Of a DNA stretch of 22,466 nt, positions 1,319 through 22,190 are shown piece after piece. The notes beneath the pieces are model-generated. The model was given only the letters and a program-made list of their open reading frames with translations. It was not told the DNA's origin and searched no databases. This stretch comes from an uncultured Roseivirgaceae bacterium (GTDB taxonomy: Bacteria; Bacteroidota; Bacteroidia; Cytophagales; Cyclobacteriaceae). Made by a program: the position numbers and the translations under genes. The DNA lies in assembly GCA_964537095.1 (NCBI GenBank), contig CAZHZR010000023.1:1-22466 (forward strand), in the 5' to 3' direction. The first letter of the stretch is position 1. The number at the start of each line of letters is the position of its first letter.

Positions 1319-1460
1319 AAATCTCTACAAACAGAAGCAGGTCCCATAAAAAATCAAATTACGGTAGACCGAGGCAAAAGGTTTTGAAAAAGTTACAATA
1401 AATCAACTTCTTTTACTAAATTTAAGATCGAAAATTACGGGTTCTCCCAGAAAACGCCTA

Positions 1461-2858: not shown

Positions 2859-2913
2859 TCGGTGTGCGCCGTTCACGTTTAAAAGCCCTGCAAAAGGGAT
2901 AAAATATACAACA

Positions 2914-2957
2914 AAAACATCGGTAGATCTTGCATTATTGCGCCCTGCCGATGTTTT
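2914..2957 (+). terminator. Inverted repeat aaaacatcgg / ccgatgtttt (10-bp arms, roughly 24-nt loop), about 55 nt downstream of the PAP2 gene stop. It may be a terminator.
   Basis: Arms at 2914-2923 and 2948-2957 are perfect reverse complements, and the 3' arm ends in TTTT. The loop is long for a canonical intrinsic terminator, so confidence is low. Confidence 0.25.
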
Positions 2958-3051
2958 GATTATAATTCTTTTGATTCTTTCACGCGAATTAGATCAGTAA
3001 ACTACCCGTTCGCTTTGGATGATTTAACAACGGAAACCGAAGGACATAGCC

Positions 3052-5010
3052 ATGTATCTGCAGCTTTATATCAGATTGTCCGTAATGCTTTCGTTCTTTA
3101 TGATCTTCTGCGCCAAGGTCATTGCTCAGAATTCAATTTACATACATGACAGCGTTCCTGAAAGAATATATTCTTTACAGAATCTAGCCTATTTCGAGGA
3201 TACTACCAGTAGCCTTCAATTTGAACAGGTATCTTCTCAACAATTCGCTAAAAATTTCGTCATCAACCCTGCCTTTTCGAACAAGCAGTACAATAAGTCG
3301 TCCACCTACTGGATAAAACTAGTCATCCGTCATAATCCTGCCTCAAAAAAGTTATGGTTATTGGAATTCTACGACCAGACGATTGATAATATCGATGCGT
3401 ACATTCCTGACGAGGAAGGAGGTTATCAAAGAATCGAGATGGGGGACAAACTCAATTTTGAATCCCGCACATTCATCCACAAAAACTTTGAGCTCATTCT
3501 TCACAATGAAGACAACAAGGTGCTGACGTATTACTTCAAAATTTCGTCACACAACTTTGCGGATATCAGAATAGCCGTTCGTTCCCTTGACAGATTCATT
3601 TTTTATGCGCTTAATGAATACTTTCTGTACGGATTGTTCTATGGGATGATCTTGATATTAAGTTTGTATAATCTCCTTATGTTTTTTGCCATACGAGAAA
3701 TCAAATATATCTACTATATATTTTATCTGTTAAGTGTAGGTATTTATGTAATGTGCGTAGACGGTATCGCATTTCAGTATCTCTGGCCCAACAGCCCGAA
3801 TTGGAATCAAATGGCATATGGTGTGTTCCTGTATTCTGTCATTTTATGGTCTCTTCTGTTCAGCAAAAGATTTCTCAATTCCAAAGCGACGGCACCTTTC
3901 TTGAATAAATTGATCAACTATACCATTATTGTCCGGAGCATCGTATTCTTAACGGGCATATTTTATAATGAGATCTTTGAATATCGGGTGATCGAGCTTT
4001 TCCCCCTTGTTTTGATATTCTTTACCAGCATCTATGTGCTGATCCAGGGGTTTAAACCAGCCAGGTTCTTTGTGATAGCTTACGGGCTTTTGTTTCTTGG
4101 ATTCTTTATAAAAGCTCTGGTTAACGCTGGCTTTCTTCCATTCGGTATTATCCAATATTACAGCCTGCACATAAGCTTCTTGTTGGAAATGCTCTTCCTT
4201 TCCTTCGCCTTGGGAGACCGCGTCAGAATCCTGAAACACAAACGTGACAGAGCTCAACTACGTATCATTCAGCAGCATGAGCTGAATGTAACATTAAAAG
4301 AGCAAATAAATCAGGAGCTGAAACTCAATATGGAGCTTAAAGATAAAGTAAACCGCGAGCTTGAAGAAAAAGTAAAAGAAAGAACAATAGAATTGAAGGG
4401 TAAAAATCAACTTCTGGAAGAATCGAATCTTAAATTGCTACAACAGGCCAAGGAGATTAATCAGATAAATTCTATGCTTGATCTGGACAATTGGAAATTG
4501 AAGAACAATGTTAAGGAGGGCCTGGTAGATCGATTTTTGAATAAAAAACTTGAGTTCGACGAGTTCAAAAAAATATTTCCCGACAAACTGGCTTGTTACA
4601 GGTATTTAGAGAGAATAAAGTGGGAGAAAGGGTTTTCGTGCCGAAAGTGTAACAATGATAAGTATTTTGATGGCATTAAAAAGTTTTCCAGAAGATGCAC
4701 CAAATGTGGGTATAATGAATCCATAACCGCCTACACTATTTTCCATGGAATAAAATTTCCCGTTGAAAAAGCCTTTTACATCACGTATCTGGTCATAAGT
4801 GGAAGTACGGCCTTAACACTTGAAGAAATCTCATCTCTGTTATCCCTAAGAGTAAACACCATCTGGAATTTCAAGAACAAAGTTCTGAACCTCAACAAAA
4901 ATTCTGAAACAAAAAACTCCATCACTGCCGAATGGTACAACCTTCTCGTTGATAAAAAACCGCGGAGAAAATCACATAAACAAAAGCTGGCGAGTCAAAG
5001 TATAGAATAA
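3052..5010 (+). CDS. Membrane one-component sensor/regulator. It combines a 7TMR-DISM extracellular domain, seven TM helices, a coiled coil and a C4 zinc-ribbon plus HTH module of the IS1595-transposase N-terminal type.
   Basis: There is an N-terminal signal peptide. A beta-rich roughly 150-aa extracellular domain (7TMR-DISMED2-like) is followed by seven hydrophobic helices between about aa 185 and 390 (FYALNEYFLYGLFYGMILILSLYNLLMFF ... FLLEMLFLSFALGD). A strongly charged heptad coiled coil spans about aa 395-500. Then comes CRKCNNDKYF...CTKCGYNESITAYTIFHGIKFPVEKAFYITYLVISGSTALTLEEISSLL, which matches the Zn-ribbon + HTH N-terminal module of IS1595/ISXO2 transposases (FxCPKCG...C..C...TxGTIFH..KLPL.KWF.AIYL). 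No DDE domain follows. Confidence 0.75.
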   Translation: MYLQLYIRLSVMLSFFMIFCAKVIAQNSIYIHDSVPERIYSLQNLAYFEDTTSSLQFEQVSSQQFAKNFVINPAFSNKQYNKSSTYWIKLVIRHNPASKKLWLLEFYDQTIDNIDAYIPDEEGGYQRIEMGDKLNFESRTFIHKNFELILHNEDNKVLTYYFKISSHNFADIRIAVRSLDRFIFYALNEYFLYGLFYGMILILSLYNLLMFFAIREIKYIYYIFYLLSVGIYVMCVDGIAFQYLWPNSPNWNQMAYGVFLYSVILWSLLFSKRFLNSKATAPFLNKLINYTIIVRSIVFLTGIFYNEIFEYRVIELFPLVLIFFTSIYVLIQGFKPARFFVIAYGLLFLGFFIKALVNAGFLPFGIIQYYSLHISFLLEMLFLSFALGDRVRILKHKRDRAQLRIIQQHELNVTLKEQINQELKLNMELKDKVNRELEEKVKERTIELKGKNQLLEESNLKLLQQAKEINQINSMLDLDNWKLKNNVKEGLVDRFLNKKLEFDEFKKIFPDKLACYRYLERIKWEKGFSCRKCNNDKYFDGIKKFSRRCTKCGYNESITAYTIFHGIKFPVEKAFYITYLVISGSTALTLEEISSLLSLRVNTIWNFKNKVLNLNKNSETKNSITAEWYNLLVDKKPRRKSHKQKLASQSIE

Positions 5011-5306
5011 ATCAGTAGGACCACTTGCATGTTATCAAAATGGCAAGGGAAATACAAGTTCGCCGATAAAATTCAATTCCTGAAAGAAACAGGTGTTTTT
5101 ATTGCGTTAAATGTTGTCTGATAAAGGTTGAATCAGGATCTGATAATCAGGCATTTTCCCGAATTTATTTAACTAATCTTGGGCAATTGATTTAGATTTG
5201 AAACCAGGTCTAAAATTTAATCTTTAAAGTTTGTGACCGGCAACGATTGTACCCTTTGCTCTTTCAAGAATTACCAAAGGCAGGGATTCTATCCTTATCT
5301 AATTTT

Positions 5307-7277
5307 ATGAAAAGACTTATTCTATTATTTTTTATATTATCGATCTATAGTTGCAAAAGTGACGACCAGGAAGATACAGTTAATGATCTAACCATTGAAT
5401 CTATAAGCGTAGGTTCCACCTATCTCCAACCTGACGGACAGCATCATAATGTTCCCACCAACCTGGCCATTGTGATGAAGTTTAATTTTACCATTGAACG
5501 TTCCTCTGTAGATCAAAACATCAAACTCCTGGATAGCGACGGAAAGCCGATTGGCCTGGCTTTCTCATATTCCAATGAAGATAAAACTATTTCTGCACTT
5601 CCGAGCTCAGAACTTGCGAACAATAGCGAGTACACCTTGCAGGTGGGACCGGTAAAGGCTGCCAATGGAGTTGAGTTCGCAGGAGCAAATTTTTCCTTCC
5701 GCACAGGACAGGCCATGCTTCGGCTGGAGTTAATTCAAATCGATGACCAAAGCTTAAACAGTTCCGGTAGAATCCTGGATGTGAACAGAGATTTTCTGAT
5801 TACAGCTAAGTTTTCAAATGCATTAAACAGCACCAGCTCTTTTGCCGATGTTGTTGCCATTAGCGGTAAAAATGGCAGTATAGACCTGAACTTTGAGCTA
5901 TCAGACAATAACAAGACTTTGCTCATAAGGCCTGCTTCTGAATTGGAAGGATTGTCAAAGTATACACTAGATATCTCTGATGAATTGGGCGGGGATGAAG
6001 AATTTATTTTCGATGGTTTTAGCAAGCAGTTTTATACTGCGGTGGATTCCACTCCAAAGTTTCCAAAGCTTTCCGATGAAGATCTGTTGACGCTGGTACA
6101 GGAGCAGACATTTAGATATTTCTGGGATTTCGCACATCCTTCCAGTGGTTTAGCGAGAGAAAGAAACAGTTCCGGAGACATTGTCACCTCGGGCGGCTCA
6201 GGATTTGGTATCATGACCATACCCGTAGGCATAGAAAGAGGTTTTATTACAAGGAAAGAAGGTGTGGAACGCATTGAAAAAATCGTGGACTTCCTTACTG
6301 CTGCTGAACGGTTTCATGGCGCATGGCCACACTGGCTAGATGGGGTAACTGGAAAAGTAGTACCGTTTAGCACCAAAGACAATGGTGCCGATTTGGTGGA
6401 AACCGCTTTTCTGGTACAAGGTCTACTCACGGTTCGGCAATACCTTCGCGAATCGGATTTACAGGAAGCTTCCATTATTGATAAAATTAACTTTTTATGG
6501 GAAACCGTAGAATGGGACTGGTTTACCAAAGGCGGCGAAAGTATTCTCTACTGGCACTGGTCACCAAACTACGGTTGGGAGATGAACCATCACGTCGCCG
6601 GCTGGGATGAATCACTCATCGTGTATGTACTTGCCGCTTCCTCTCCTACCCACAGCATCGATGCCGAAGTTTACCATCAAGGCTGGGCTGGCAATGGAAA
6701 TATGGCAAATGGTAAAGAATTCTATGATATTACGCTGCCCCTGGGTCCGGATTATGGAGGTCCTATGTTCTTCTCCCACTATTCATTTTTGGGTTTAGAT
6801 CCCAGAAACCTGGAAGACACTTACGCTAAATACTGGGACCAGAATGTGAGTCATGCCCTGATCAACCAGCATCACGCTGTTGCCAACCCAAAAGACTATG
6901 TTGGATATAGTGCGGCCAGTTGGGGCTTTACAGCCAGCGACAATCACAGTGGCTATTCGGCCCACTCACCATCCAATGATCTCGGTGTCATTACTCCAAC
7001 GGCTGCTTTGTCTTCCATGCCTTATACTCCGGAGCTTTCCATGGAGGCGCTTCATTATTTTTATTACGTCATGGGCGATAAGCTTTGGGGCGAATATGGC
7101 TTTTATGATGCTTACAATCCTACCGAAGACTGGTATGCAGACTCTTACCTGGCAATAGACCAAGGCCCCATAATTTTAATGATAGAAAACTACCAGACAG
7201 GGCTGCTTTGGGATTTGTTTATGTCAAATCCTGAAATAAAAAATGGTTTGGAAAAACTGAGTTTTTCGAGCTTTTAA
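5307..7277 (+). CDS. Secreted lipoprotein with two N-terminal SbsA-type Ig-like domains and a DUF3131/GH144-like catalytic domain of the endo-beta-1,2-glucanase family, often annotated as 'glucoamylase family protein'.
   Basis: The ORF track starts at 5247, but the lipoprotein signal MKRLILLFFILSIYSC begins at 5307, so that is the more likely start. Two roughly 100-aa beta-rich repeats end in ...FSFRT and ...FSKQFYT, a pattern typical of SbsA Ig-like domains. The C-terminal 430 aa are clearly paralogous to the next gene (FRYFWDFAHPSSGLARER..SGGSGFGIMTIPVGIERGFITR...ERFHGAWPHWLDGVTGKV...DLVETAFLVQGL...GLDPRNL). The GH144 family assignment is from memory of DUF3131 proteins, not from a search. 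Confidence 0.65.
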   Translation: MKRLILLFFILSIYSCKSDDQEDTVNDLTIESISVGSTYLQPDGQHHNVPTNLAIVMKFNFTIERSSVDQNIKLLDSDGKPIGLAFSYSNEDKTISALPSSELANNSEYTLQVGPVKAANGVEFAGANFSFRTGQAMLRLELIQIDDQSLNSSGRILDVNRDFLITAKFSNALNSTSSFADVVAISGKNGSIDLNFELSDNNKTLLIRPASELEGLSKYTLDISDELGGDEEFIFDGFSKQFYTAVDSTPKFPKLSDEDLLTLVQEQTFRYFWDFAHPSSGLARERNSSGDIVTSGGSGFGIMTIPVGIERGFITRKEGVERIEKIVDFLTAAERFHGAWPHWLDGVTGKVVPFSTKDNGADLVETAFLVQGLLTVRQYLRESDLQEASIIDKINFLWETVEWDWFTKGGESILYWHWSPNYGWEMNHHVAGWDESLIVYVLAASSPTHSIDAEVYHQGWAGNGNMANGKEFYDITLPLGPDYGGPMFFSHYSFLGLDPRNLEDTYAKYWDQNVSHALINQHHAVANPKDYVGYSAASWGFTASDNHSGYSAHSPSNDLGVITPTAALSSMPYTPELSMEALHYFYYVMGDKLWGEYGFYDAYNPTEDWYADSYLAIDQGPIILMIENYQTGLLWDLFMSNPEIKNGLEKLSFSSF

Positions 7278-7344
7278 TACCAGAGGGTACTACGCCGGAT
7301 AATGACTTCGTGAAAGAAAATTTGAGATCTAAAACTCATAAACT

Positions 7345-8706
7345 ATGAAAAAACAATTTATGCTCCTTTTTACAATTTGCGCAGGAATGTTTGCCGCCTG
7401 CACCGGTACTAAAACCGAAGAAAGAGGAGAAGAAACAAACATTGCTGTGGGTATTGATAGTATTTCCAATGACTCTTTGCTCAACCTGGTACAATATCAG
7501 ACATTTCAATATTTCTACGAGAATGGAGAACCTACTTCGGGTCTGGGGCGGGAAAGAACGCATATGGATGGAGAATACCCTCAAAATGATCAAAATGTAA
7601 TAACTACTGGCGGTTCTGGATTTGGTATAATGGCACTTATCGTAGGAATTGAAAGAGGCTTTATCACGCGTGATCAAGGTGTAAAACGTTTTCAGCGAAT
7701 TGTCAACTTTTTGGATACCGTAGAACGCTTCCATGGTGTATGGTCGCATTGGATAGATGGTGAAACAGGAAAAGTGAAAGCATTTAGCAAAAAAGATAAT
7801 GGTGGCGATCTGGTCGAAACTGCCTTCCTTGTCCAGGGGCTGATCACGGCGCGAGAATATTTAAAGACCGGGAATGAGGAAGAAAAAGCCCTGGCCAGCA
7901 AAATTGATGGGCTGTGGAGAGGTGTTGAATGGGACTGGTATACCAAAGGAGAGGATGTACTGTATTGGCACTGGTCTCCGGAGTATGAGTGGGAGATGAA
8001 CTTCCCCATTGGAGGCTATAACGAATGCCTGATCACTTATGTATTAGCAGCCTCCTCGCCTACCTATCCCATTGACCCAGCAGTTTACCATAAAGGATGG
8101 GCTAGAAATGATTCAATCATGAACGATACCACTATTTACGGCTATGAAACCGTATTGGACTATTACGAATACAGCGATGAACCGGTTGGTCCATTGTTCT
8201 GGGCGCAATATTCCTTTCTGGGATTGGATCCGCGGAATCTTAAAGATAAATATGCAGATTATTGGAAGCTGGTTCAGAATCATGCGCTGATTAATTATGA
8301 GCATGCTGTACAGAACCCACACAACTACGAAGGATATGGCCAAAAAGTATGGGGCCTCACCGCAAGTTATTCACCCGATGAAGGATACGCCAATCACATG
8401 CCTACACACGACCTTGGCGTCATCTCACCCACTGCCGCCTTATCCTCCTTCCCCTATACACCAGAACAAAGCATGGCATTTTTGCGATTTTTATATACAG
8501 AGGCTGACACCCTGGTAGGAGCTTATGGCCCTTACGATGCTTTTAGCATTGAAAAAAATTGGTACACCCCGCGCTACCTGGCGCTGGATCAGGGAACGAT
8601 TCCTGTCATGATTGAAAACCATCGGACCGGTTTACTTTGGGATCTATTTATGTCGGCCCCTGAGATCGAAACTGGTCTTAAAAAGCTAGGGTTTACATCC
8701 TACTGA
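7345..8706 (+). CDS. DUF3131/GH144-like glycoside hydrolase lipoprotein, a paralogue of the upstream gene.
   Basis: It has a lipoprotein signal, MKKQFMLLFTICAGMFAAC. It shares conserved blocks with the 5307..7277 product along its whole length: YQTFQYFYENGEPTSGLGRER, TGGSGFGIMALIVGIERGFITR, ERFHGVWSHWIDGETGKV, DLVETAFLVQGL, WHWSPEYEWEMN and GLDPRNLKDKYADYW. Confidence 0.7.
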   Translation: MKKQFMLLFTICAGMFAACTGTKTEERGEETNIAVGIDSISNDSLLNLVQYQTFQYFYENGEPTSGLGRERTHMDGEYPQNDQNVITTGGSGFGIMALIVGIERGFITRDQGVKRFQRIVNFLDTVERFHGVWSHWIDGETGKVKAFSKKDNGGDLVETAFLVQGLITAREYLKTGNEEEKALASKIDGLWRGVEWDWYTKGEDVLYWHWSPEYEWEMNFPIGGYNECLITYVLAASSPTYPIDPAVYHKGWARNDSIMNDTTIYGYETVLDYYEYSDEPVGPLFWAQYSFLGLDPRNLKDKYADYWKLVQNHALINYEHAVQNPHNYEGYGQKVWGLTASYSPDEGYANHMPTHDLGVISPTAALSSFPYTPEQSMAFLRFLYTEADTLVGAYGPYDAFSIEKNWYTPRYLALDQGTIPVMIENHRTGLLWDLFMSAPEIETGLKKLGFTSY

Positions 8707-8744
8707 GTTACTGAATTATTGATTTTGTTAAAAAGCCACTTGAC

Positions 8745-10994
8745 ATGAACTACGTAAACCACCTATCGAAAGCCATCTGCTTGGTAATTCTTTCTCTCCT
8801 TTTTTTAATCCCTTCGCAAGCGCAGCCTTCTCAGCAATTTGGTCAGGATGCGGAAATCGAATCAAAGATCGACTCCCTGCTGGCGCTTATGACGCTTGAA
8901 GAGAAAATCGGGCAGCTTACCTTGTACACCAGCGACATCGACGTAACAGGCCCTACCATTCGTGAGGGATATAAAGAAGATATCAGGAAAGGAAATGTTG
9001 GTTCAATTTTTAATGCTTATGGGGCTGATTATACCAGGTCGCTCCAAAAGATGGCCGTTGAAGAAACCCGTTTGAAAATACCACTGCTGTTCGGATATGA
9101 TGTAATCCATGGGCATAAAACAATTTTCCCAATGCCACTGGGAGAGTCTGCAAGTTGGGATCTGGAGGCTATAGAAAGATCGGCACAAATCGCCGCTGCT
9201 GAAGCTTCTGCAGAAGGATTGCACTGGACTTTTGCTCCCATGCTGGATGTAGCGCGTGATCCCAGGTGGGGCAGAGTTGCGGAAGGAGCAGGAGAAGATA
9301 CATATCTTAGCACCAAAATAGCAGTTGCCAGAATAAAAGGCTTTCAAGGTGAGAATTTACGTGATCTCAACACCTTGTTAGCTTGCGCGAAGCACTTTGC
9401 AGCCTATGGAGCCGCACTGGCCGGGAGGGACTATAATACGGTAGACATGTCGGACCGGGTTTTGCGTGAAGTTTACTTTCCACCATTTAAAGCGGCTGTT
9501 GAGGCCGGAGTAGCGACTTTTATGACATCTTTCAATGAAGTAGACGGAGTACCCGCTTCCGGCAGTAAATATTTGATGACCGATGTACTCAAAGAAGAAT
9601 GGGGTTTTGATGGATTTATAGTTACAGATTATACCTCCATCAACGAAATGGTGCCTCATGGCGTGGTGGCCAATGAGAAAGATGCAGGCGAGCTTGCGAT
9701 CAATGCAGGGGTTGACATGGATATGCAGGGGGGTGTTTACCAGGAGCATTTGGCAGATTTAGTGAAGGAGGGAAGAGTCGCCGAATCTCAAATAAATGAA
9801 TCAGTAAGGAGAATTCTAAGGATGAAATACGCGCTCGGCCTTTTTGACGACCCCTACCGCTATTCTGATACAAAGCGTGAAAAGGAAGTTGTGATGAGCA
9901 AAGAGCATTTGGCTGCAGCCAGGGATATTTCCAGAAAATCTATTGTGTTGCTAAAAAATGAAGGCAACACCCTGCCGCTAAAAAAGAACACAAAAACAGT
10001 CGCTGTTATCGGCCCGTTGGCTGACAGCAAGCGTGACATGATAGGTTCCTGGTCGGCCGCCGGAGACTACACAAAAGCCGTTACTTTACTGGAAGGCATC
10101 AAAGCCGCTGTGCCTTCTTCTACCAAAGTGCTTTATGCGAAGGGGGCCAACATCAATGATGATACAACCAAATGGATTGATGAAGCAGTTAAGGTCGCCA
10201 AAAAGGCAGATGTGATAATACTAGCAATAGGCGAAGACGCACAAATGAGTGGAGAGGCAGCCAGTAGATCTAATATAGATCTACCCGGGGTTCAACTGGA
10301 GTTGGCCAAAGCGATGCAAAAAACAGGCAAACCCGTTGTGGCCGTGCTGATGAACGGCAGACCTTTAACCATCACATGGTTAGATGAAAACATCCCATCT
10401 ATCCTTGAAACCTGGTTTTTAGGAACCCAGGCAGGACACGCTATCGCAGATGTTATATTCGGAGACTACAATCCCTCCGGTAAATTACCTGTTACCTTTC
10501 CTCGCAGCGTAGGTCAAGTTCCTATTTTTTACAATAATAAAAATACTGGCAGACCCATGTCTGATGAAAAATACACATCAAAATATCTGGATATTTCAAA
10601 TGAGCCATTATATCCTTTTGGTTACGGCTTGAGCTACGCTAATTTTACCTATAGTAATCTAGTGGCAGGCAAATCCGAGTATAAAATGGGGGAACCCATA
10701 GAAGTAGCCGTGACTGTTTCGAATAGTGGCAAAGTAGCAGGGGAAGAAGTGGTGCAACTTTACGTCAGAGATCTTGTAGGAAGTGTAACGCGACCTGTTA
10801 AGGAGTTAAAAGGATTTCAGAAAATTAAACTGGAACCAGGCGCATCGCAACAAGTGCGGTTTACCCTCACTGCAAAAGATCTTGCCTTCTACACCAGAAA
10901 TATGGATTTCGCAGCCGAGCCCGGCGCTTTCAAAGTATATGTGGGAACAAATTCCAGAGATGTATTGGAAGCTGATTTTGAATTAAGAGAATAA
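8745..10994 (+). CDS. bglX: Glycoside hydrolase family 3 beta-glucosidase, BglX-like and periplasmic.
   Basis: It has a signal peptide. The GH3 N-domain blocks are present: KHFAAYGAALAGRDY, SFNEVDGVPASGSKYLMTDVLKEEWGFDGFIVTDY (the catalytic Asp lies in the VTDY nucleophile motif), the GH3 C-terminal alpha/beta sandwich and a fibronectin-like C-terminus. The 749-aa length is typical of BglX-type enzymes. Confidence 0.9.
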   Translation: MNYVNHLSKAICLVILSLLFLIPSQAQPSQQFGQDAEIESKIDSLLALMTLEEKIGQLTLYTSDIDVTGPTIREGYKEDIRKGNVGSIFNAYGADYTRSLQKMAVEETRLKIPLLFGYDVIHGHKTIFPMPLGESASWDLEAIERSAQIAAAEASAEGLHWTFAPMLDVARDPRWGRVAEGAGEDTYLSTKIAVARIKGFQGENLRDLNTLLACAKHFAAYGAALAGRDYNTVDMSDRVLREVYFPPFKAAVEAGVATFMTSFNEVDGVPASGSKYLMTDVLKEEWGFDGFIVTDYTSINEMVPHGVVANEKDAGELAINAGVDMDMQGGVYQEHLADLVKEGRVAESQINESVRRILRMKYALGLFDDPYRYSDTKREKEVVMSKEHLAAARDISRKSIVLLKNEGNTLPLKKNTKTVAVIGPLADSKRDMIGSWSAAGDYTKAVTLLEGIKAAVPSSTKVLYAKGANINDDTTKWIDEAVKVAKKADVIILAIGEDAQMSGEAASRSNIDLPGVQLELAKAMQKTGKPVVAVLMNGRPLTITWLDENIPSILETWFLGTQAGHAIADVIFGDYNPSGKLPVTFPRSVGQVPIFYNNKNTGRPMSDEKYTSKYLDISNEPLYPFGYGLSYANFTYSNLVAGKSEYKMGEPIEVAVTVSNSGKVAGEEVVQLYVRDLVGSVTRPVKELKGFQKIKLEPGASQQVRFTLTAKDLAFYTRNMDFAAEPGAFKVYVGTNSRDVLEADFELRE

Positions 10995-11067
10995 GCTATA
11001 CCATACTACATTCAATATTCGCATTTTTTGCGTCTTCTTAACTTTATCAAATTTTAGAGAAGATAAA

Positions 11068-11097
11068 TTGGCAATGCTGCATATAATTCTATATTTG
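11068..11097 (+). promoter_or_regulatory. Candidate Bacteroidetes sigma-A promoter, with TTG at 11068-11070 and a 19-bp spacer to TAtaTTTG at 11090-11097, upstream of the EEP gene.
   Basis: It matches the Bacteroidetes consensus of -33 TTG and -7 TAnnTTTG with allowed spacing. The predicted TSS is only about 5-15 nt from the annotated ATG, which would give a very short leader. It could alternatively serve the Met at 11121. Confidence 0.3.
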
Positions 11098-11108
11098 AAT
11101 TTCTAAAT

Positions 11109-11975
11109 TTGCCGCGAAACATGATTCTTTCATTCTATAAATCTCTTTTATTTCTACTAATCTTCCCCGGTATGATAGCTGCCCAACAACAGGATGTATC
11201 GTACAAGGTTGCTACCTACAACATTCGCTATGATGCCGTTCAAGACACCGCAAATGCCTGGAAAAACCGAGCTCCGGTAATCCAGCGCTTAATCCTCTTC
11301 AATGAAATAGATATATTCGGCATTCAGGAAGGGCTGCATCACCAGGTCGAAGATTTGGATTCGCTTTTACCTGACCACACTTACATAGGCGCGGGAAGGG
11401 ACGATGGCGCACAAAAAGGTGAATATTCTGCAATATTTTACAATCAACTTAAATTTGAGGTACTTGAATCTGCTACATTCTGGCTGTCGGAGACTCCCGA
11501 ACGACCTTCTAAATCATGGGATGCCTCTTTGCCTCGTATCTGTACCTGGGCGGTTATAAAGCATCGGGAATCAAATACAATGATGTTTGTTTTTAATACC
11601 CATTTCGACCATATCGGAAAAATAGCGCGGGTAAACAGCGCCACGCTTCTTCATAAAAAAATACAGGAAATCGCCAAAAACGCTCCTGTAATACTAATGG
11701 GCGATTTTAATGCAGAACCTGGTTCAGAAGTTTATGCAACTTTAATGTCGAACAACTTCAACGATGCTTTTAACATTTCTGAAACTCCGCATTTTGGTCC
11801 AGAGGCCTCCTTCAATGGATTTAATTTTTCTGAAATTCCCACACGAAGGATAGATTTTATTTTTGTAAATAATTATTTTACCGTGCTTCGGCACGCCATT
11901 TTAAATAACCACTACAGCCTGAAATATCCCTCTGACCATTTCCCGGTACTGACAGAGATAAAGTTTGTTGAATAA
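11109..11975 (+). CDS. Secreted protein of the endonuclease/exonuclease/phosphatase (EEP) family.
   Basis: It has a signal peptide (LLFLLIFPGMIAAQQ). EEP catalytic blocks are present: YNIRYD near the N-terminus, GIQEG, HFDHIG, GDFNAEPGS and a C-terminal SDHFPV. Confidence 0.8.
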   Translation: MPRNMILSFYKSLLFLLIFPGMIAAQQQDVSYKVATYNIRYDAVQDTANAWKNRAPVIQRLILFNEIDIFGIQEGLHHQVEDLDSLLPDHTYIGAGRDDGAQKGEYSAIFYNQLKFEVLESATFWLSETPERPSKSWDASLPRICTWAVIKHRESNTMMFVFNTHFDHIGKIARVNSATLLHKKIQEIAKNAPVILMGDFNAEPGSEVYATLMSNNFNDAFNISETPHFGPEASFNGFNFSEIPTRRIDFIFVNNYFTVLRHAILNNHYSLKYPSDHFPVLTEIKFVE

Positions 11976-12009: not shown

Positions 12010-12834
12010 CTACTTTTCCAGCTTCAACAGTCTGTTATTCATTTGGCTTAACTGGCTTTCAACAGTCATCAGTCTGCTCTCCAGCAAAGAGGGAGGCGAA
12101 ACGTGTTGAGACCATACCCCTACTGCCTGCCAGATTTCCAGCATTTCTTCGCTTGACACTATCCTGTTTTCATAGGCCGAATTGTCAGCTTTTAATAAAA
12201 TCGCCTTTTCGTCCACAGACAGTAATCGTCTTGCAATTATCCCCTTCGGCGTTACCACCACAAAAACCGATTCGAGCTTGATTTTTTTAGGAATCACTTC
12301 GAGTTTTTTGGCAAGCAGCACATCTCCATCGTGTATGCCCCGGTCATGATAAAACATTTCATCGCCGCTGTGTACGAAAGCCCGCAGTATTCCTGCGGTA
12401 TCTGCTGGCAGAAAAATTCTTTTTAAGTTAATGATGTAATCCTTGTTCTGAAGATTGACAATATATTCCAGTACATTGTCCTTTTCAACCAATGGAACAC
12501 CTTCCTTGTAATTTCCCAAAAGAAAACCCTTTTCCTTTACGTTTGCTTTGATGCTTTTCCCCAAGGCAGGAGGCATTTGCGTCGGATCAAATTCTCCTTT
12601 TAATATATCAAAGCTATAGAGTTCGTTTACAGTTAACTCCTTCCGAAGAAGGGCATCCGTAGACAAGCTAAAGTGGTTGGCGATAGCTATGATTGTGTCA
12701 ATCTTAGGCTCTGACCTCCCCTCTTCATAGGCTCCTACACTTGGCCTGGCAAGACTAAACAAATCAGCAAATGCAGCTTGCGATAACTTTCGTACCGTCC
12801 TGATCTTCTTAATGTTTTTTCCAATGAATGACAT
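12010..12834 (-). CDS. XRE-family HTH transcriptional regulator with a C-terminal LexA/cI-type S24-like domain whose catalytic dyad appears to be substituted.
   Basis: The N-terminal HTH_3-type block is IKKIRTVRKLSQAAFADLFSLARPSVGAYEEGRSEPKIDTIIAIANHFSLSTDALL. The C-terminal region aligns by eye to the LexA/UmuD/cI cleavage domain: AFVHSGDEMFYHDRGIHDGDVLLAKK...VVTPKGIIARRL versus UmuD SGDSM...ISDGDLLIV...TVKKL. The Ser nucleophile position is Glu (SGDEM, not GDSM) and the general-base Lys position is Arg (ARRL, not VKKL). The gene is the only minus-strand gene and lies divergent to the pspA-containing cluster. Confidence 0.75.
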   Translation of the reverse strand: MSFIGKNIKKIRTVRKLSQAAFADLFSLARPSVGAYEEGRSEPKIDTIIAIANHFSLSTDALLRKELTVNELYSFDILKGEFDPTQMPPALGKSIKANVKEKGFLLGNYKEGVPLVEKDNVLEYIVNLQNKDYIINLKRIFLPADTAGILRAFVHSGDEMFYHDRGIHDGDVLLAKKLEVIPKKIKLESVFVVVTPKGIIARRLLSVDEKAILLKADNSAYENRIVSSEEMLEIWQAVGVWSQHVSPPSLLESRLMTVESQLSQMNNRLLKLEK

Positions 12835-13021: not shown

Positions 13022-13417
13022 ATGAACCATTATTACGACAAAGTTAAAGAATACTTGCTGGAGGCGGGCTGCACTATAAAACATGAAAATGAAGGCGAAG
13101 GCCTTTTTGTAGTAGACTATGAAAATATGGGCATCAGCAATCTGGTAATAGGATGTGCAGATCCGATCTTAATAGTTGAACAATTCATCTTTGAAATCAA
13201 CGAAGAATGTGTAGAAGTTTTCAAAAGCCTTCTACAAAAAAACAGAGAAATCATTGCCGGTGCCTTTGTAATAGACGATTCTGGAGAGAAGGTGCTTTAT
13301 AGAAATACGCTTATGCTTGAGAACCTCGATCTGAACGAACTAGAAGGCACATTTAACGCGTTGGGGCTAATGCTTAGCGAGTATTCTGAAGACCTTATCC
13401 GCTTCGCCAGCAAGTAA
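13022..13417 (+). CDS. Small cytoplasmic YbjN-like protein with a type III secretion chaperone-like fold. It is the first gene of the pspA cluster.
   Basis: It is a 131-aa acidic protein with an alpha/beta pattern (LFVVDYENMGISNLVIGCADPILIVEQFIFEI ... AGAFVIDDSGEKVLYRNTLMLENL). This resembles YbjN / putative sensory-transduction-regulator family members, which are often encoded beside PspA. The family call is tentative. Gene reality is supported by spacing and codon usage. Confidence 0.5.
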   Translation: MNHYYDKVKEYLLEAGCTIKHENEGEGLFVVDYENMGISNLVIGCADPILIVEQFIFEINEECVEVFKSLLQKNREIIAGAFVIDDSGEKVLYRNTLMLENLDLNELEGTFNALGLMLSEYSEDLIRFASK

Positions 13418-13495: not shown

Positions 13496-14227
13496 ATGAA
13501 CAACATATTTAAAAGACTATTTAAAATAGGACAAGCCGAGGCAAATTCGGCGGTAGACCAGCTTGAAAACCCCATCAAATTGACCGAACAAGGAATCCGG
13601 GACATGAAGGAAAATCTCGACAAGAGCCTTCAATCACTGGCGCAGGTAAAAGCGTTGTCTATCAGAGCAAGGAACGATTTCGAAACTTATAACGACGCTG
13701 CCCAAGACTATGAAAGAAAGGCTTTGATGCTTTTAAAAAAGGCACAGGCGGGTGAAATGAAGTCCGAAGAAGCTGACCGGCTGGCAAGTGAGGCTTTGGT
13801 AAAAAAAGAAGCCAGTACCAGCCAAGCCAACCGCTCATTGGCAGAAAAGGAGAAGTTCGACAAAAGCATATCTGAACTCGATCAGAACATAAAAACGATC
13901 AAAAGCACCATCAGCAAGTGGGAAAATGAGCTCAAGACACTCAAGGCACGGGTTAAGGTAAGCGATGCCACCAAAAGGCTCAACAAGCAACTTGCTCAAA
14001 TTGATAGCAGCAGTACAGTCTCCATGTTAGAACGCATGAAAGACAAGGTGGCGGAAGAGGAAGCACTGGCACAATCCTACGCGGAAATAGCCAATGAAAG
14101 CAGAAGCATTGACGAAGAAATAGACAAGGCTTTAGAAAACACATCGGCATCTGCCAAAACATCCAATGAGCTTGCTGCTTTAAAAGCAAAACTTGGGATC
14201 AATACGGCTTCTGAAGAAAAAGAGTAA
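13496..14227 (+). CDS. pspA: PspA/IM30 (Vipp1) family protein, phage-shock protein A-like and in the ESCRT-III superfamily.
   Basis: The N-terminus MNNIFKRLFKIGQAEANSAVDQLENPIKLTEQGIRDMKENLDKS aligns with E. coli PspA [40 protein letters not shown]. The protein is entirely helical coiled coil, about 243 aa, with a C-terminal LAALKAKL that matches PspA LAQLKAKM. Confidence 0.85.
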   Translation: MNNIFKRLFKIGQAEANSAVDQLENPIKLTEQGIRDMKENLDKSLQSLAQVKALSIRARNDFETYNDAAQDYERKALMLLKKAQAGEMKSEEADRLASEALVKKEASTSQANRSLAEKEKFDKSISELDQNIKTIKSTISKWENELKTLKARVKVSDATKRLNKQLAQIDSSSTVSMLERMKDKVAEEEALAQSYAEIANESRSIDEEIDKALENTSASAKTSNELAALKAKLGINTASEEKE

Positions 14228-17191: not shown

Positions 17192-17230
17192 ACAGGATTT
17201 GGTCTCCAGACCATATCCTGTATTTTTTCT
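17192..17230 (+). terminator. Strong Rho-independent terminator, a GC-containing hairpin followed by a T-run, 18 nt downstream of the flotillin stop codon.
   Basis: The stem is ACAGGATTTGGTCT (17192-17205) paired with AGACCATATCCTGT (17208-17221), 13 bp with one mismatch. It is followed directly by ATTTTTTCTT (17222-17231). Confidence 0.7.
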
Positions 17231-17255: not shown

Positions 17256-20200
17256 ATGGAGAATGAAGAAGCAATAGTACCTGAAGAAAACATGATGGAG
17301 GCAGGTAGTTATGAGATACTGCGTAACCGCCTCACCAAGTCGGGCGCAGACCTCAGTGCGAGGATAAAAAAGCTGAATGAACTGCGCAAAGAAGTCTTCG
17401 GCACAATTGATACCAAGCTGGTAACCACCGATAGAATAAACACGGAACATAATTGTGTGCCTCAGGATATGATCCCCGTCGGCCATTTCTTCATTTTTGG
17501 CTACAATGTACACCTGGGCCTGAAATCCCAGATCGAACTCCCCGACGTTTTCAGCATCTATAGATACAAAGATCATGGATTTCATCAGGAAGATTATACG
17601 TTGATCAACGACGAAACATTCATAGACGACTTCCAAAAACTCTATAAATATTATAAAGACACCCAATTCATAAAATTCTCAAAAGCCGGAAATAATCTGT
17701 ATATGGTATTCCGGATCGGAAAAAGCCTTACGGACATCAAAGCTTTCAAATGGACTTTTTCTGGAGGTAAACTTACTTATATTGATAACAGAAGTGAGCA
17801 TGAATATCGATTTCCAGATCAATATGCTTTTCGCTGGAAACAAGCTACCCGCGACCAGCACAGGCAGGGTGCTCATCCTCACATCAGTATTGAAGACAGA
17901 CTTTTTGTAGAGACAATAGGTGGCGACCTTACCATTAAAATTGAAGACAATACCGAGCAAGGCAAGGGTATTTATACCGAATCTGTAGAAAATAAAGACC
18001 AAACACTGGACGACGCTGATATAAGGTATGCTGTGTTAGGGAATTTGGTTTTATTAAAAATTAAACCTTATCTGGAAGAAAACCATCGACATTTGGTTTT
18101 TAACGCTAAAATCAAAGAGGTAAAAAGAGTTGATGCCATTAAAGATGCGTGTGTATTACTACCAGATGATCAGGGGATTTTGTTTCCAAACGGTTATTAC
18201 CTTCAAACCGGTGAATACAAGCTGTTCGAATTGCAAAATGAAAACATGCTATTCGAAAAAAGAATAGATAGTCCTAATGGCGAAGACTTTCTCTATGTTT
18301 TCTACAACAAACAACAAAGCTTTTACTTGTTGCTCCCGTACAATATCATATCGCAAAAAATTGACACTCCTATTTCATGCCACGGTTTTTCAATATTCGA
18401 GAACGGCGAGATGTGTTTTTTCAAAGGGGAAAATGACCCAAGTATGCACCATGCCATCCAGGTATGGCAGACGCCCTTTGTGGGGCCAAACTTTCAACTT
18501 CATCAATCGCACGATTCCTATTTGTTCAAAGTAGGAAACAAGGAAATTGTAAGAGCCATGGCGGAAGCCAACGAAATTTTCACCCTCATCCATAAAGATG
18601 ACTCCTATTCCGGGTTGTACCACGACCTTGTAAAAGCATCTACAACAATTCTGGACACTTATCATTGGCTGAAAAAAGATGAGACTTTCAGGCTTTCAGA
18701 ACCCCTGCAGGAAATACGAGAGACAGCCAATGCTGCCATCGATGAATTTGAGAAAGTATCAAATATCAAAAACAATACGGAACAACGAGTACTGGAAGTA
18801 TTGGGTGAAGCCGACGAGTTGATCCGAAAAATAAAGATAAAAAAGGCAGAGCATATCTTAGATTATGTTGACAATCTATCCTCAATCAGAAAAATTAGCG
18901 GGGAAGTTATTTCTTTAAAAGATCTAAGATATGTGGATGCAAAAAAAATTGAGGCATATGAGGATGAGCTGGCAAAATTCAGCATCAATGTTTCTACCAA
19001 CTGTGTCAATTTTCTTTTAAAGGACAACGCACTTGTTCCTTATAATAAAAAGGTTGATGAGCTTGGCGGTGCCGTGGAAAAAGCAGGCAAGCTGCTTGAT
19101 ATTACAAAGCTAGAGGAAGAAGCTGCTCAAATTGCCGCTGAGCTAGAGATGCTGATTGAGATCGTTAGCAATCTGAAGATCAATGATGCAACTGAAACCA
19201 CCAGGATCATCGACAAAATATCTGCAATATACGCGAGCTTTAATCAAATTAAAGCCAACATCAGCAGGCGGCGCAAAGAACTGCTGACAATTGAAGGGAA
19301 AGCAGAATTCAACGCACAACTGAAGCTGGTTGACCAAAGTATCATCAATTATATCGATATCAGTAGCACTCCTGAAAAATGCGATGAGTACCTGACCAGG
19401 ATAATGGTACAACTCGAAGAGCTGGAGGGCAAGTTTTCTGAATTTGATGAATATGTAAATAAAGTTGGTGAGAAACGTGAAGAGGTCTATAACGCCTTTG
19501 AATCCCGTAAAATCAATCTGATAGAGGCCAGAAACAAAAGAGCAAATAACTTACAGGAGGCGGCTGAACGTATTTTAAAAGCTGTGAAGAGCAGAATTTC
19601 ACGGTTTAATGAGGTGACCGAGATCAATGGTTATTTTGCGTCAGACCTGATGATTGAAAAGCTGAAAAACATTGTTAAAGAGCTTCAGGATTTGGGAGAC
19701 AATGTCAAGGGTGACGACATCCAAAGCAAGCTCAAGACTGTACGGGAAGATACGGTAAGGCAGTTGAAAGACAAGTCGGAACTTTTCGTCGCCGGCGAGA
19801 ATATTATAAAATTCGGTCCCTTTCAATTCTCTGTAAATACGCAGCCTCTGGAACTTTCCATGGTGAATAAAAATGGCAGGTTATATTTTCATTTAGGAGG
19901 AACTAATTTCTTCGAAGAAGTTGTGAACGAAGAGATATTGCACGCAAAACCAGTGTGGGAACAGATATTAATCTCTGAAAACCCTGATGTTTATCGCGCT
20001 GAGTTTCTAGCTTATGTTATTTTTACTGAAGCAAAAGAAAATCCGGTCGACAGTACGACACTGTTTGAATTATATAAACTTCCCTTTGAAAAGCTACTAA
20101 ACCTGGTGCAGGAAAAAATGGCTACGCGCTTTAGTGAAGGTTATGTAAAAGGGGTTCATGATCTGGATGCAGCGCGAATCCTGCAGGCATTGATTGCCAT

Positions 20201-22190
20201 GTATGAAAACGCCGACCTATTGAGGTATGACACAATCTCAAGGGCATGCGCGATGCTTTTCTGGAGCTTGCAGGTATCGGAAGAAAAGAAAAAGACACTG
20301 CATCATCAATTAAAAGGGGCCGGATATATTTTACAGGTATTCCCAAACACCGACGCATTTGAGGACATCAGACAACTCATTAAATCCGAAATTTCAGATT
20401 TCGTGCTCAGCACAAAATTGTTTGAACCTCATGTAGTTGCGGATGCCACCGAGTTTTTATTTTATGAGTTAACCCGCGACGATAAATTCATTATTCACGG
20501 AGAAGCAGCAAAGCTATATACTGACTTTATCGACTTTCTTAAGAAAAATAATGCCATTGATAAGTATGAGGCCTCGACCAAAGCCTTACAGGAAGATGCA
20601 ATTCTAAAATACAAGCTGATTAAAAGCTGGTTAACCGCCTATGTAGCCACGAACAAAAATAATGAATCTTTTATTTTTCTTCAGGAAACTGCAGTCTTGC
20701 TATTAACGGGAGGATATGACGATAAGCATATAATCAATGTTAAACTTGAAGAAATGCTGGATGGACTCACCGGCTCTCACCCGTTGATTTCAGATAAAAA
20801 ATACCACCTCAACTTTAATTTGTTCCTACAAAAGCTACGCGCTTACTCCCTGGAAGTGGTTCCCAGATTCAGTGAGTTTACTGTACTTAAAAAGAATACC
20901 AGCAGCGAATTTGCGAAAGAACTGAGACTGGATGAGTTCAAGCCCAGGGTCATGTCCAGCTTCGTAAGGAATCAGCTGATTGACAAAGTATACCTACCAC
21001 TTATTGGCGCCAACCTTGCGAAACAAATTGGCACCGCCGGAGAATCTAAAAGAACCGACCTTATGGGTATGTTACTTTTAATTTCTCCGCCTGGGTATGG
21101 AAAAACTACCCTTATGGAGTATATCGCTGACAGGCTAGGTATTGTTTTCATGAAAATTAATGGTCCGGCAATTGGTCATGAAGTTACCTCTGTAGATCCT
21201 TCAGAAGCAAAGAACGCAGGCGCCAGACAGGAACTTCTAAAATTAAACCTGGCATTCGAAATGGGCGATAATGTGATGATTTACCTGGACGACATCCAGC
21301 ATTGCAACCCGGAATTTCTGCAGAAATTCATCAGCTTGTGTGACGGACAGCGGAAGATTGAGGGAGTTTACAAAGGCAGAAGTAAAACCTATGATTTCCG
21401 GGGTAAGAAAGTCTGTGTAGTGATGGCAGGAAACCCTTATACTGAGAGTGGTGAGAAGTTTAGAATTCCAGATATGCTTGCCAACAGGGCAGATATATAT
21501 AATCTCGGGGATATTATCGGCGACAGTGCAGACGTGTTTAATCTAAGCTTTATTGAAAACAGCCTTACCTCCAATCCCACCCTTGGGAAGCTGGCAACAA
21601 AGAGCCATAAAGATGTGCTCACCCTTGTAAAAATTGCAGAAACTGGCTCTAAAGAAGGTTTTACGTTTGAAGCAAATCATACCACTCAGGAGATCAATGA
21701 ATACGTAAACGTGCTTCAAAAGCTATTAAAAATAAGGGATATTATATCGCGGGTGAACCAGGAATATATTCATTCGGCCGGACAGGCTGATGAATATAGA
21801 ACAGAACCGCCTTTTAAGCTCCAGGGATCTTACAGAAATATGAATAAAATAGCAGAAAAAATATCGCCGTTAATGAACGATGAGGAACTGCAGATTTTGA
21901 TTAATAGCCACTATGAAAGTGAGGCTCAAACGCTGACAACCGGGGCGGAAGCCAATCTTTTAAAGTTTAAGGAGATCATTGATATCCTTTCCCCTTCGGA
22001 AAAAAATCGCTGGGAGGAAATTAAGAGGATGTTTCAAAAAAATCAAAAACAAAAAGGCTTTGGCAATAACAACATGGCGATGATGATAGATCAAATTGAA
22101 GGTGTAAATAAAGCATTATTAGGCATTCAACATGCGCTTACCTCCAGCACAAACGGACAGGATGCAACCAAACCTAAAGTCGAAAACTGA
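17256..22190 (+). CDS. Giant (1,644 aa) multidomain protein. It has an N-terminal coiled coil, a beta-rich domain of about 370 aa, a helical/coiled-coil region of about 800 aa and a C-terminal MoxR/dynein-type AAA+ ATPase domain.
   Basis: It is a single uninterrupted ORF. Walker A is LISPPGYGKTTLMEYIADRLG, with GYGKTT at aa 1280-1285 (nt 21093-21110). Walker B is VMIYLDDIQ (aa ~1340-1348, DD at nt 21288-21293). It also has KKVCVVMAGNPYTESGEKFRIPDMLANRADIYNL (aa 1384-1417). This last motif is the NP sensor-1 / 'P..LL.RF' sensor-2 signature of the MoxR/midasin/McrB/dynein AAA+ clade (compare MoxR ATQNP..EGTYPLPEAQLDRF). No GTPase G3/G4 motifs and no SMC hinge were seen. Confidence 0.8.
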   Translation: MENEEAIVPEENMMEAGSYEILRNRLTKSGADLSARIKKLNELRKEVFGTIDTKLVTTDRINTEHNCVPQDMIPVGHFFIFGYNVHLGLKSQIELPDVFSIYRYKDHGFHQEDYTLINDETFIDDFQKLYKYYKDTQFIKFSKAGNNLYMVFRIGKSLTDIKAFKWTFSGGKLTYIDNRSEHEYRFPDQYAFRWKQATRDQHRQGAHPHISIEDRLFVETIGGDLTIKIEDNTEQGKGIYTESVENKDQTLDDADIRYAVLGNLVLLKIKPYLEENHRHLVFNAKIKEVKRVDAIKDACVLLPDDQGILFPNGYYLQTGEYKLFELQNENMLFEKRIDSPNGEDFLYVFYNKQQSFYLLLPYNIISQKIDTPISCHGFSIFENGEMCFFKGENDPSMHHAIQVWQTPFVGPNFQLHQSHDSYLFKVGNKEIVRAMAEANEIFTLIHKDDSYSGLYHDLVKASTTILDTYHWLKKDETFRLSEPLQEIRETANAAIDEFEKVSNIKNNTEQRVLEVLGEADELIRKIKIKKAEHILDYVDNLSSIRKISGEVISLKDLRYVDAKKIEAYEDELAKFSINVSTNCVNFLLKDNALVPYNKKVDELGGAVEKAGKLLDITKLEEEAAQIAAELEMLIEIVSNLKINDATETTRIIDKISAIYASFNQIKANISRRRKELLTIEGKAEFNAQLKLVDQSIINYIDISSTPEKCDEYLTRIMVQLEELEGKFSEFDEYVNKVGEKREEVYNAFESRKINLIEARNKRANNLQEAAERILKAVKSRISRFNEVTEINGYFASDLMIEKLKNIVKELQDLGDNVKGDDIQSKLKTVREDTVRQLKDKSELFVAGENIIKFGPFQFSVNTQPLELSMVNKNGRLYFHLGGTNFFEEVVNEEILHAKPVWEQILISENPDVYRAEFLAYVIFTEAKENPVDSTTLFELYKLPFEKLLNLVQEKMATRFSEGYVKGVHDLDAARILQALIAMYENADLLRYDTISRACAMLFWSLQVSEEKKKTLHHQLKGAGYILQVFPNTDAFEDIRQLIKSEISDFVLSTKLFEPHVVADATEFLFYELTRDDKFIIHGEAAKLYTDFIDFLKKNNAIDKYEASTKALQEDAILKYKLIKSWLTAYVATNKNNESFIFLQETAVLLLTGGYDDKHIINVKLEEMLDGLTGSHPLISDKKYHLNFNLFLQKLRAYSLEVVPRFSEFTVLKKNTSSEFAKELRLDEFKPRVMSSFVRNQLIDKVYLPLIGANLAKQIGTAGESKRTDLMGMLLLISPPGYGKTTLMEYIADRLGIVFMKINGPAIGHEVTSVDPSEAKNAGARQELLKLNLAFEMGDNVMIYLDDIQHCNPEFLQKFISLCDGQRKIEGVYKGRSKTYDFRGKKVCVVMAGNPYTESGEKFRIPDMLANRADIYNLGDIIGDSADVFNLSFIENSLTSNPTLGKLATKSHKDVLTLVKIAETGSKEGFTFEANHTTQEINEYVNVLQKLLKIRDIISRVNQEYIHSAGQADEYRTEPPFKLQGSYRNMNKIAEKISPLMNDEELQILINSHYESEAQTLTTGAEANLLKFKEIIDILSPSEKNRWEEIKRMFQKNQKQKGFGNNNMAMMIDQIEGVNKALLGIQHALTSSTNGQDATKPKVEN

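Follow-up and report, generated by a model that had tools for sequence, protein, structure and literature searches.

A 22,466-nucleotide window of DNA from an uncultured Roseivirgaceae bacterium, read along the forward strand of contig CAZHZR010000023.1, carries at 17256-22190 a gene for a 1,644-residue AAA+ protein, which belongs to the DUF3686 family and is encoded by the last gene of an operon that runs, in order, through a CesT/YbjN-like protein, PspA, a YqiJ-like membrane protein and a YqiK-type flotillin. The AAA+ module of the protein is MoxR-like in its predicted structure and is preceded by a beta-propeller and long helical regions, and the core of the operon that is conserved across phyla consists of the YqiJ, flotillin and AAA+ genes. 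We hold these statements of identity, architecture and operon context, taken together, with high confidence. With regard to function, the best overall explanation is that the DUF3686 ATPase remodels a membrane scaffold of flotillin and the NfeD-type protein, and to this reading as a whole, its identity and context included, we give slightly more than an even chance, while remodeling of the flotillin scaffold specifically is given somewhat less than an even one.

A full-length member of a widespread family

The reading frame is uninterrupted, with exactly the coordinates that had been proposed from the sequence alone (hereafter the sequence-only reading), where it was described as a giant single-polypeptide AAA+ protein with a beta-rich N-domain, and that description is borne out. 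The Pfam model for DUF3686 (PF12458) matches residues 32-470 over its full length (profile positions 1-448 of 448, E = 6.4e-190), DUF7902 (PF25472) matches residues 591-675 (E = 1.6e-26), and there are weak matches to AAA (PF00004; residues 1273-1393, E = 3.7e-7) and AAA_5 (PF07728; residues 1273-1397, E = 5.9e-6) further along the chain. No family model for the protein exists in NCBIfam, which returns only sub-threshold RuvB matches around the P-loop. The Pfam label of DUF3686 is "ATPase involved in DNA repair" and the NCBI protein name is "DNA repair ATPase", the latter probably being a misnomer.

A word-indexed search retrieved at least 4,936 homologues at E < 1e-5, and the best 120 of these are 1,589-1,848 residues long, cover 95-100% of the query and have an identical precomputed set of Pfam domains. 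The sequence-only reading had taken the architecture to be atypical, and as a one-off this has to be given up, with DUF3686, DUF7902 and AAA found together in thousands of members; the window gene is a further example of a catalogued, computationally described family and not a unique architecture. Scanning GTDB with one genome per species gave at least 588 confirmed relatives, of which 80 loci (L001-L080) were kept, and these match residues ~1-1640 at 46-61% identity, apart from the closest, L001, at 91%, which is likewise from an uncultured Roseivirgaceae bacterium (Cytophagales, Bacteroidota). The loci span seven phyla-level groups, namely Bacteroidota, Planctomycetota, Verrucomicrobiota, Kiritimatiellota, Desulfobacterota, Clostridia and Omnitrophota. 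Identity of 46-61% over ~1,620 residues across Bacteroidota, Clostridia and Planctomycetota is unusually high for such a large protein, and it indicates that constraint has been very strong or else that the YqiJ-flotillin-AAA+ triad has been transferred horizontally as a unit.

To assess conservation, 75 full-length orthologues representing seven phyla were aligned end to end, and all regions of the protein are conserved among them. A cluster-representative search at 50% identity, with residues 1-480 as the query, found the N-domain in 541 clusters, always in the N-terminal position and in complete members of 1,504-2,036 residues, and the N-domain occurs together with a PPGxGKT P-loop in 64 of 65 diverse full-length cluster representatives. 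Full-length conservation and this joint occurrence of N-domain and P-loop therefore rule out a fusion or frameshift artefact, an eventuality that the sequence-only reading had raised in the form of a split gene in other strains.

The conserved core of the operon

The operon, which is the main functional clue, is missing from the sequence-only reading. Of the 63 loci whose upstream sequence extends for at least 3.6 kb, 60 have the flotillin gene directly upstream of the ATPase gene and in the same orientation, with a gap that ranges from a 7-nucleotide overlap to ~2.4 kb, and 56 have the YqiJ-like gene, in every phylum sampled. The remaining genes have a narrower distribution, with PspA in 22, CesT in 21 and the divergent regulator in 21 of 62 loci, and none of the three outside Bacteroidota. 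Clustering of all open reading frames in the 80 loci gave no recurrent gene besides flotillin, YqiJ, PspA, CesT and the regulator, which combines helix-turn-helix (HTH) and S24-like domains.

The two membrane proteins of the core are easily overlooked by standard models. In the case of the 710-residue flotillin, the Pfam Band_7 and Flot models and NCBIfam all miss it, and a profile search of the PDB yields only a weak match to the QmcA coiled coil, yet a profile built from 29 orthologues aligns with Escherichia coli YqiK at an hhalign probability of 100% (E = 6e-43, 398 columns); the annotation of such YqiK-type flotillins in genomes is probably incomplete. The C-terminal ~150 residues of the flotillin are conserved among the orthologues and have no similarity to E. 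coli YqiK. For the 213-residue YqiJ-like protein the Pfam YqiJ_N match is weak and Pfam and NCBIfam otherwise give nothing usable, and its profile aligns with E. coli YqiJ at an hhalign probability of 96.4% (E = 1e-9). No ATPase gene adjoins yqiJK in E. coli, and to our knowledge the yuaF-floT operon of Bacillus subtilis contains no ATPase.

Upstream of the core in the window, the CesT/Tir-like and PspA genes are adjacent and on the same strand. The regulator is divergent, and its S24-like domain reads GDEM and ARRL where proteins of the LexA/UmuD type have GDSM and xKRL, which contain the catalytic Ser and Lys, and judging from these motifs it is probably a non-cleaving S24 fold. A simple motif search for the regulator matched only 2 of 22 orthologues.

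An operon with this composition has already been described by Ravi et al. (mSystems, 2024; PMC11237479), who reported a CesT/Tir-PspA dyad in combination with a flotillin that has a transmembrane segment, a band-7 domain and a coiled coil, a YqiJ/YuaF-type protein with three transmembrane segments and an AAA+ ATPase. All five components are present in the window in the same order, and there is no difference in kind. Their account of the ATPase is a single computational sentence, which gives no clade, structure or experiment and calls it a "novel AAA+ ATPase with coiled coil and beta-propeller" (PMC11237479), a description that is matched here by the N-terminal helix (residues 14-48) and the ~28 strands at residues 54-405. 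The same authors found that abbreviated flotillin-YqiJ-AAA+ operons are spread more widely across bacteria, and they proposed a role like that of a chaperone in building membrane-associated complexes (PMC11237479).

Between the flotillin and ATPase genes lies a hairpin followed by a U-run, which the sequence-only reading had called a strong terminator. The hairpin is real: its RNA folds at -19.2 kcal/mol (z = -3.9), and it is kept together with the U-run in the 91%-identical locus L001 (~7545-7585), where one base pair has changed in a compensatory manner from T-A to A-T. A simple consensus terminator scan did not list it. Plausibly the hairpin attenuates transcription, such that the ATPase would be made in smaller amounts than the abundant scaffold proteins.

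Domain architecture and the MoxR-like AAA+ module

An AlphaFold2 model of residues 1-1200 (48-sequence alignment; predicted local distance difference test (pLDDT) score, 82.7; strands assigned by DSSP) agrees closely with the N-terminal coiled coil (residues ~15-50) and beta-rich region (~50-420) expected from the sequence alone, in placing a single long helix and then the strand-rich domain at nearly the same positions. The propeller, one of the folds that had been suggested for the beta-rich region, is supported because the top Foldseek matches of residues 1-1200 in the PDB all contain beta-propellers, including prolyl oligopeptidase, the clathrin terminal domain, IFT-A subunits, Elp1, CyRPA and BtuK1, and the number of blades in the model is probably about seven, given its 28 strands. 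The K/E-rich helical spacer of roughly 800 residues that had been proposed to follow is only partly upheld: it is helical, with K and E together making up ~22% of residues 422-841 and some helices there running to 48-58 residues, but it is broken by a small beta domain at residues 850-888, and beyond this residues 914-1151 form the least conserved part of the protein, with a mean conservation across the 75 orthologues of 0.43 compared with 0.87 for the AAA core. The likeness to a motor, tether or stalk that had been drawn from this layout remains speculation. There is no transmembrane segment in the 1,644 residues, the highest 19-residue Kyte-Doolittle average being 0.98, and the absence of a hydrophobic segment means that the DUF3686 protein, a cytoplasmic one, is soluble.

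With regard to residues 54-1151 (17415-20708), the top Foldseek matches of residues 1-1200 are membrane-coat and IFT proteins with a propeller-plus-solenoid layout, namely IFT-A subunits and clathrin heavy chain. Homology to these coat proteins was rejected on the grounds of TM-scores of 0.06-0.13 and very large root-mean-square deviations, and the likeness shows no more than a shared domain order.

In the AlphaFold2 model of residues 1200-1644 (pLDDT 78.4), the ATPase has a five-stranded alpha-beta-alpha core and a helical lid (Table 1). The module had been placed at the very C-terminus, which is not the case, as it is followed by a conserved helical tail of ~130 residues. After this tail there are a further 100-250 residues in orthologues from Planctomycetota, Verrucomicrobiota, Kiritimatiellota, Omnitrophota and Desulfobacterota when compared with those of Bacteroidota and Clostridia (L019, L021, L024, L030, L034, L035, L042, L043, L062, L064 and L071). 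The nucleotide-binding motifs picked out from the sequence are real, and residues K1283, D1345, D1346, E1353, R1366, N1393 and R1411 are invariant in the 75 orthologues; what needs amending is the role given to the IPDMLANRA motif, which was read as sensor-2-like and whose R1411, from its place in the model, appears to occupy the arginine-finger position and not sensor 2. The invariance of the catalytic motifs points to a site that is active or at least nucleotide-binding. Walker B is of the DD and not the DE type in all 75 orthologues and in 61 of the 65 diverse representatives, and in an alignment with RavA the second Asp falls opposite the Walker B Glu. An Asp can serve as the catalytic base in P-loop NTPases.

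In a Foldseek search with the ATPase model, NorQ chains came first (target-normalized TM-score, 0.50-0.57), and CbbQ scored 0.52-0.55, RuvB 0.32-0.37 and Lon ~0.2; ClpA (12.6) and Lon (12.3) were among the entries of a separate structural comparison. The relatives found by structure are thus AAA+ proteins, and the placement in a kinase or ABC family that would have taken the domain outside AAA+ was not encountered. On the evidence of the model, the nearest solved structural relatives are the MoxR-family proteins NorQ and CbbQ, and the model also contains a pre-sensor-1 hairpin, so that the MoxR clade named by the sequence-only reading is borne out to this extent. What the model does not predict is a beta-hairpin inserted in helix 2, described as the defining feature of the clade, which in NorQD grips the finger of the von Willebrand factor A (VWA) protein (PMC13036017). 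Between beta2 and the Walker B strand there are instead a 4-residue helix, an ordered and near-invariant 14-residue loop (pLDDT ~89) and an unbroken 16-residue helix. Nor does the Pfam MoxR model AAA_3 match the protein. An hhalign comparison of the cross-phylum C-terminal alignment with E. coli RavA and YehL was non-significant (probability 16-23%), and phmmer and family-profile searches of the PDB matched p97, Rpt and RuvB over the stretch from the P-loop to beta2 only; assignment to a clade by sequence failed, the profiles not separating the clades. As the sequence-only reading had observed, there is no VWA gene among the proteins of the window, and none recurs in the 80 loci, although one may lie elsewhere in the genome. 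The lack of a hairpin to grip a VWA protein and the lack of a VWA partner are at least self-consistent, and we describe the module as MoxR-like by predicted structure, holding back from bona fide MoxR for want of the helix-2 hairpin, the VWA partner and an AAA_3 match.

NorQ and CbbQ are proteins of ~260 residues that act together with a separate VWA protein and grip its finger by means of long helix-2 beta-hairpins (PMC13036017), whereas the DUF3686 ATPase has no predicted helix-2 hairpin, no VWA partner, a DD in place of a DE Walker B, 1,270 extra N-terminal residues and the 130-residue tail, with an identity of 13-16%. RavA, which forms the LdcI-RavA cage, is similar in that its MoxR-type module is extended by helical and beta domains, with which it docks on a large partner assembly (PMC6987120), and its Walker B aligns with the DD motif; it differs in having 498 residues, in carrying its extensions at the C-terminus and in having its VWA partner ViaA encoded adjacently, and its profile probability against the DUF3686 ATPase is 16%. 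HflK/C-FtsH and other pairings of this kind likewise couple an SPFH membrane scaffold genetically to an AAA+ machine and an NfeD-type protein, but FtsH is a membrane-anchored protease of the classical AAA+ clade, in contrast to the soluble, MoxR-like DUF3686 ATPase, which has no protease domain. A link between NfeD and stomatin is well known. The giant AAA_5-type proteins midasin and dynein concatenate six AAA modules in one chain, whereas the DUF3686 ATPase has a single module and must oligomerize.

Table 1. Features of the ATPase gene, its product and the adjoining genes (nucleotide positions are those of the window)
Feature	Residues	Nucleotides	Strand	Description and basis
DUF3686-family AAA+ gene	1-1644	17256-22190	+	Complete open reading frame, ATG to TGA, 1,644 codons
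N-terminal single long helix	14-48	17295-17399	+	AlphaFold2 model
Beta-propeller, core of DUF3686	54-405	17415-18470	+	~28 strands in model; Foldseek
Long-helix region	422-841	18519-19778	+	Includes DUF7902 (19026-19280); model, Pfam, composition
Small beta domain	850-888	19803-19919	+	Strands in model; flanking loop of low pLDDT; motif conserved
Second helical domain, helical-repeat-like	914-1151	19995-20708	+	Model; helices of 11-19 residues
Linker into ATPase	1152-1269	20709-21062	+	Short strands (1165-1186) and helices; both models
AAA+ module	1270-1510	21063-21785	+	Walker A and B, pre-sensor-1 hairpin, sensor-1, R1411, lid helices
Beta1	1272-1276			AlphaFold2 model
P-loop/Walker A	K1283			GYGKT
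Beta2	1297-1302			AlphaFold2 model
Helix alpha2	1321-1336			AlphaFold2 model
Beta3 and Walker B	1339-1345	21288-21293 (DD codons)		IYLDD, ending D1345-D1346
Pre-sensor-1 beta-hairpin	1367-1372, 1375-1380			Two strands between alpha3 and beta4; AlphaFold2 model
Beta4 and sensor-1	1385-1392, N1393			AGNPYTE
Putative arginine finger	R1411			IPDMLANRA, just before beta5
Lid helices and helical extension	to ~1632			AlphaFold2 model
Helical C-terminal extension, ~130 residues	1511-1644	21786-22187	+	Conserved; model, orthologue alignment
Hairpin and U-run, terminator- or attenuator-like		17192-17230 (hairpin 17192-17221)	+	Between flotillin and AAA+ genes
YqiK-type flotillin, 710 residues		15042-17174	+	One N-terminal transmembrane segment, SPFH domain, long coiled coil, C-terminal extension
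YqiJ/YuaF-type (short NfeD-like) membrane protein, 213 residues		14271-14912	+	~3 transmembrane segments and C-terminal soluble domain
PspA/IM30 (ESCRT-III superfamily)		13496-14227	+	Pfam PspA_IM30, E = 1.8e-38
CesT/Tir-like (YbjN-like) chaperone-fold protein		13022-13417	+	Pfam CesT_Tir_1, E = 4.9e-54
XRE-HTH and S24-like regulator, divergent		12010-12834	-	Pfam HTH_3, Peptidase_S24

The rest of the window upstream (116-11975) contains unrelated genes, which encode an FG-GAP repeat protein, a PAP2-family protein, a 7TMR-DISM sensor with a zinc ribbon, two "putative glucoamylase" proteins (PF10091, one of them with Big_5), a GH3 beta-glucosidase and an Exo_endo_phos family protein. The hydrolase genes among them are probably a beta-glucan utilization cluster.

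Proposed function and its alternatives

If the ATPase acts on the flotillin scaffold, it would be expected to form a ring as other MoxR-type ATPases do, probably a hexamer of ~1.1 MDa, and binding and hydrolysis of ATP would remodel a specific partner complex and would not serve to unfold substrates in bulk. A precedent is NorQ, whose ring holds an adaptor by way of which the target is remodeled (PMC13036017), and another is the pairing of SPFH cages with AAA+ machines, such as HflK/C with FtsH. The partner of the DUF3686 ATPase would be the membrane-bound flotillin/YqiJ scaffold, which might be assembled, dismantled or cleared of clients, and the propeller and helical arms, present in cis, would replace the separate VWA adaptor and dock on the scaffold, a candidate site being the C-terminal extension that is specific to this family of flotillins. 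Through the PspA and CesT-like proteins that are added in Bacteroidota, the machine may be tied there to protection or repair of the membrane under stress. In its most complete form, a dedicated machine for assembly, disassembly or client extraction of flotillin cages, in which the VWA adaptor is swapped for six in-cis arms and which is coupled through PspA to membrane repair in Bacteroidota, the proposal is doubtful and is put forward tentatively.

Several considerations weigh against remodeling of the flotillin scaffold. A literature search for "DUF3686" or "PF12458" found no papers, and thus no experiment on any member, and one on flotillin, AAA+ and YqiK likewise yielded nothing experimental on a DUF3686 ATPase. 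Three loci (L018, L028 and L040) lack genes for flotillin, YqiJ and PspA within 10 kb of the ATPase gene, despite ample upstream sequence. The DD Walker B may mean that hydrolysis is slow and that the module is a nucleotide-gated switch rather than a motor. Lastly, the clade call rests on predicted structures, the sequence profiles being non-discriminating.

The switch-like possibility leads to one of the alternatives, in which the protein is a nucleotide-gated structural or scaffolding protein whose propeller and arms form a coat-like lattice on flotillin domains, with the DD module as the assembly switch. Such a role would fit with the invariance of the DD Walker B in the 75 orthologues, with the 75% of the protein that is non-ATPase propeller and helical material, and with the presence of IFT-A and clathrin heavy chain among the top Foldseek matches of residues 1-1200; however, the low TM-scores of those matches reflect a propeller plus generic helices, the Walker A, sensor-1 and arginine-finger-position residues are invariant as in a working site, and an Asp is itself a possible catalytic base, and we consider this role unlikely. 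Slightly less so, though still improbable, is a Vps4-like disassembly ATPase for PspA, in which the ring would take PspA polymers off the membrane for reuse, with flotillin and YqiJ in an accessory role. The window and 22 of 62 loci do have PspA and the CesT-like gene in one operon, PspA is a member of the ESCRT-III superfamily, and PspA-linked AAA+ ATPases are likened to Vps4 by Ravi et al. (PMC11237479); an AAA+ protein encoded together with an ESCRT-III-superfamily protein does suggest ATP-driven remodeling of a membrane polymer. Against this, PspA is found near none of the loci outside Bacteroidota, while flotillin and YqiJ are nearly universal, and the ATPase is non-classical: no MIT domain was detected with Pfam, the predicted pre-sensor-1 hairpin is one that Vps4 enzymes do not have, and the module is not of the classical AAA type.

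The two remaining alternatives draw on database names and marginal scores. That the protein is a DNA repair ATPase is stated in its NCBI and Pfam names, and weak matches to RuvB models (23 and 18 bits) and the neighboring regulator with its LexA-like S24 domain could be taken in the same sense, but the RuvB scores are set against cut-offs of 282 and 299 bits and the similarity is confined to ~45 residues around the P-loop, Pfam detects no DNA-binding, nuclease or SMC/Rad50-type domain, the conserved neighbors are membrane proteins, and the regulator departs from LexA at the expected catalytic Ser and Lys, and we regard this as very improbable indeed. Hardly better placed is a role in anti-phage or abortive-infection defense as a large ATPase coupled to membrane proteins. 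PspA is historically a "phage shock" protein and PADLOC gives a match to the mad8 ATPase (E = 9e-5, 20 bits), but that match covers the AAA region only and scores far below membership, there is no nuclease, protease, TIR or other effector domain and no defense-island context, and the high identity over 1,600 residues together with the fixed synteny resembles a housekeeping or stress module and not the fast-evolving, patchy genes of defense.

Both the family and the operon had been catalogued before (Pfam; Ravi et al. 2024), and the window adds an example to them rather than a discovery. What the present analysis supplies is a MoxR-like placement, from predicted structure, of an ATPase that has no evident VWA partner, a set of putative catalytic residues (K1283, D1345/D1346, N1393 and R1411) and a candidate docking site. 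With regard to the assembly, turnover and energy coupling of bacterial SPFH scaffolds and PspA polymers, a large, strongly conserved ATPase encoded directly after a flotillin gene in seven phyla is an obvious candidate for the missing energy-dependent component. Should the DUF3686 ATPase prove to be a dedicated machine for flotillin cages, no energy-dependent regulator of a flotillin scaffold would have been known before it.

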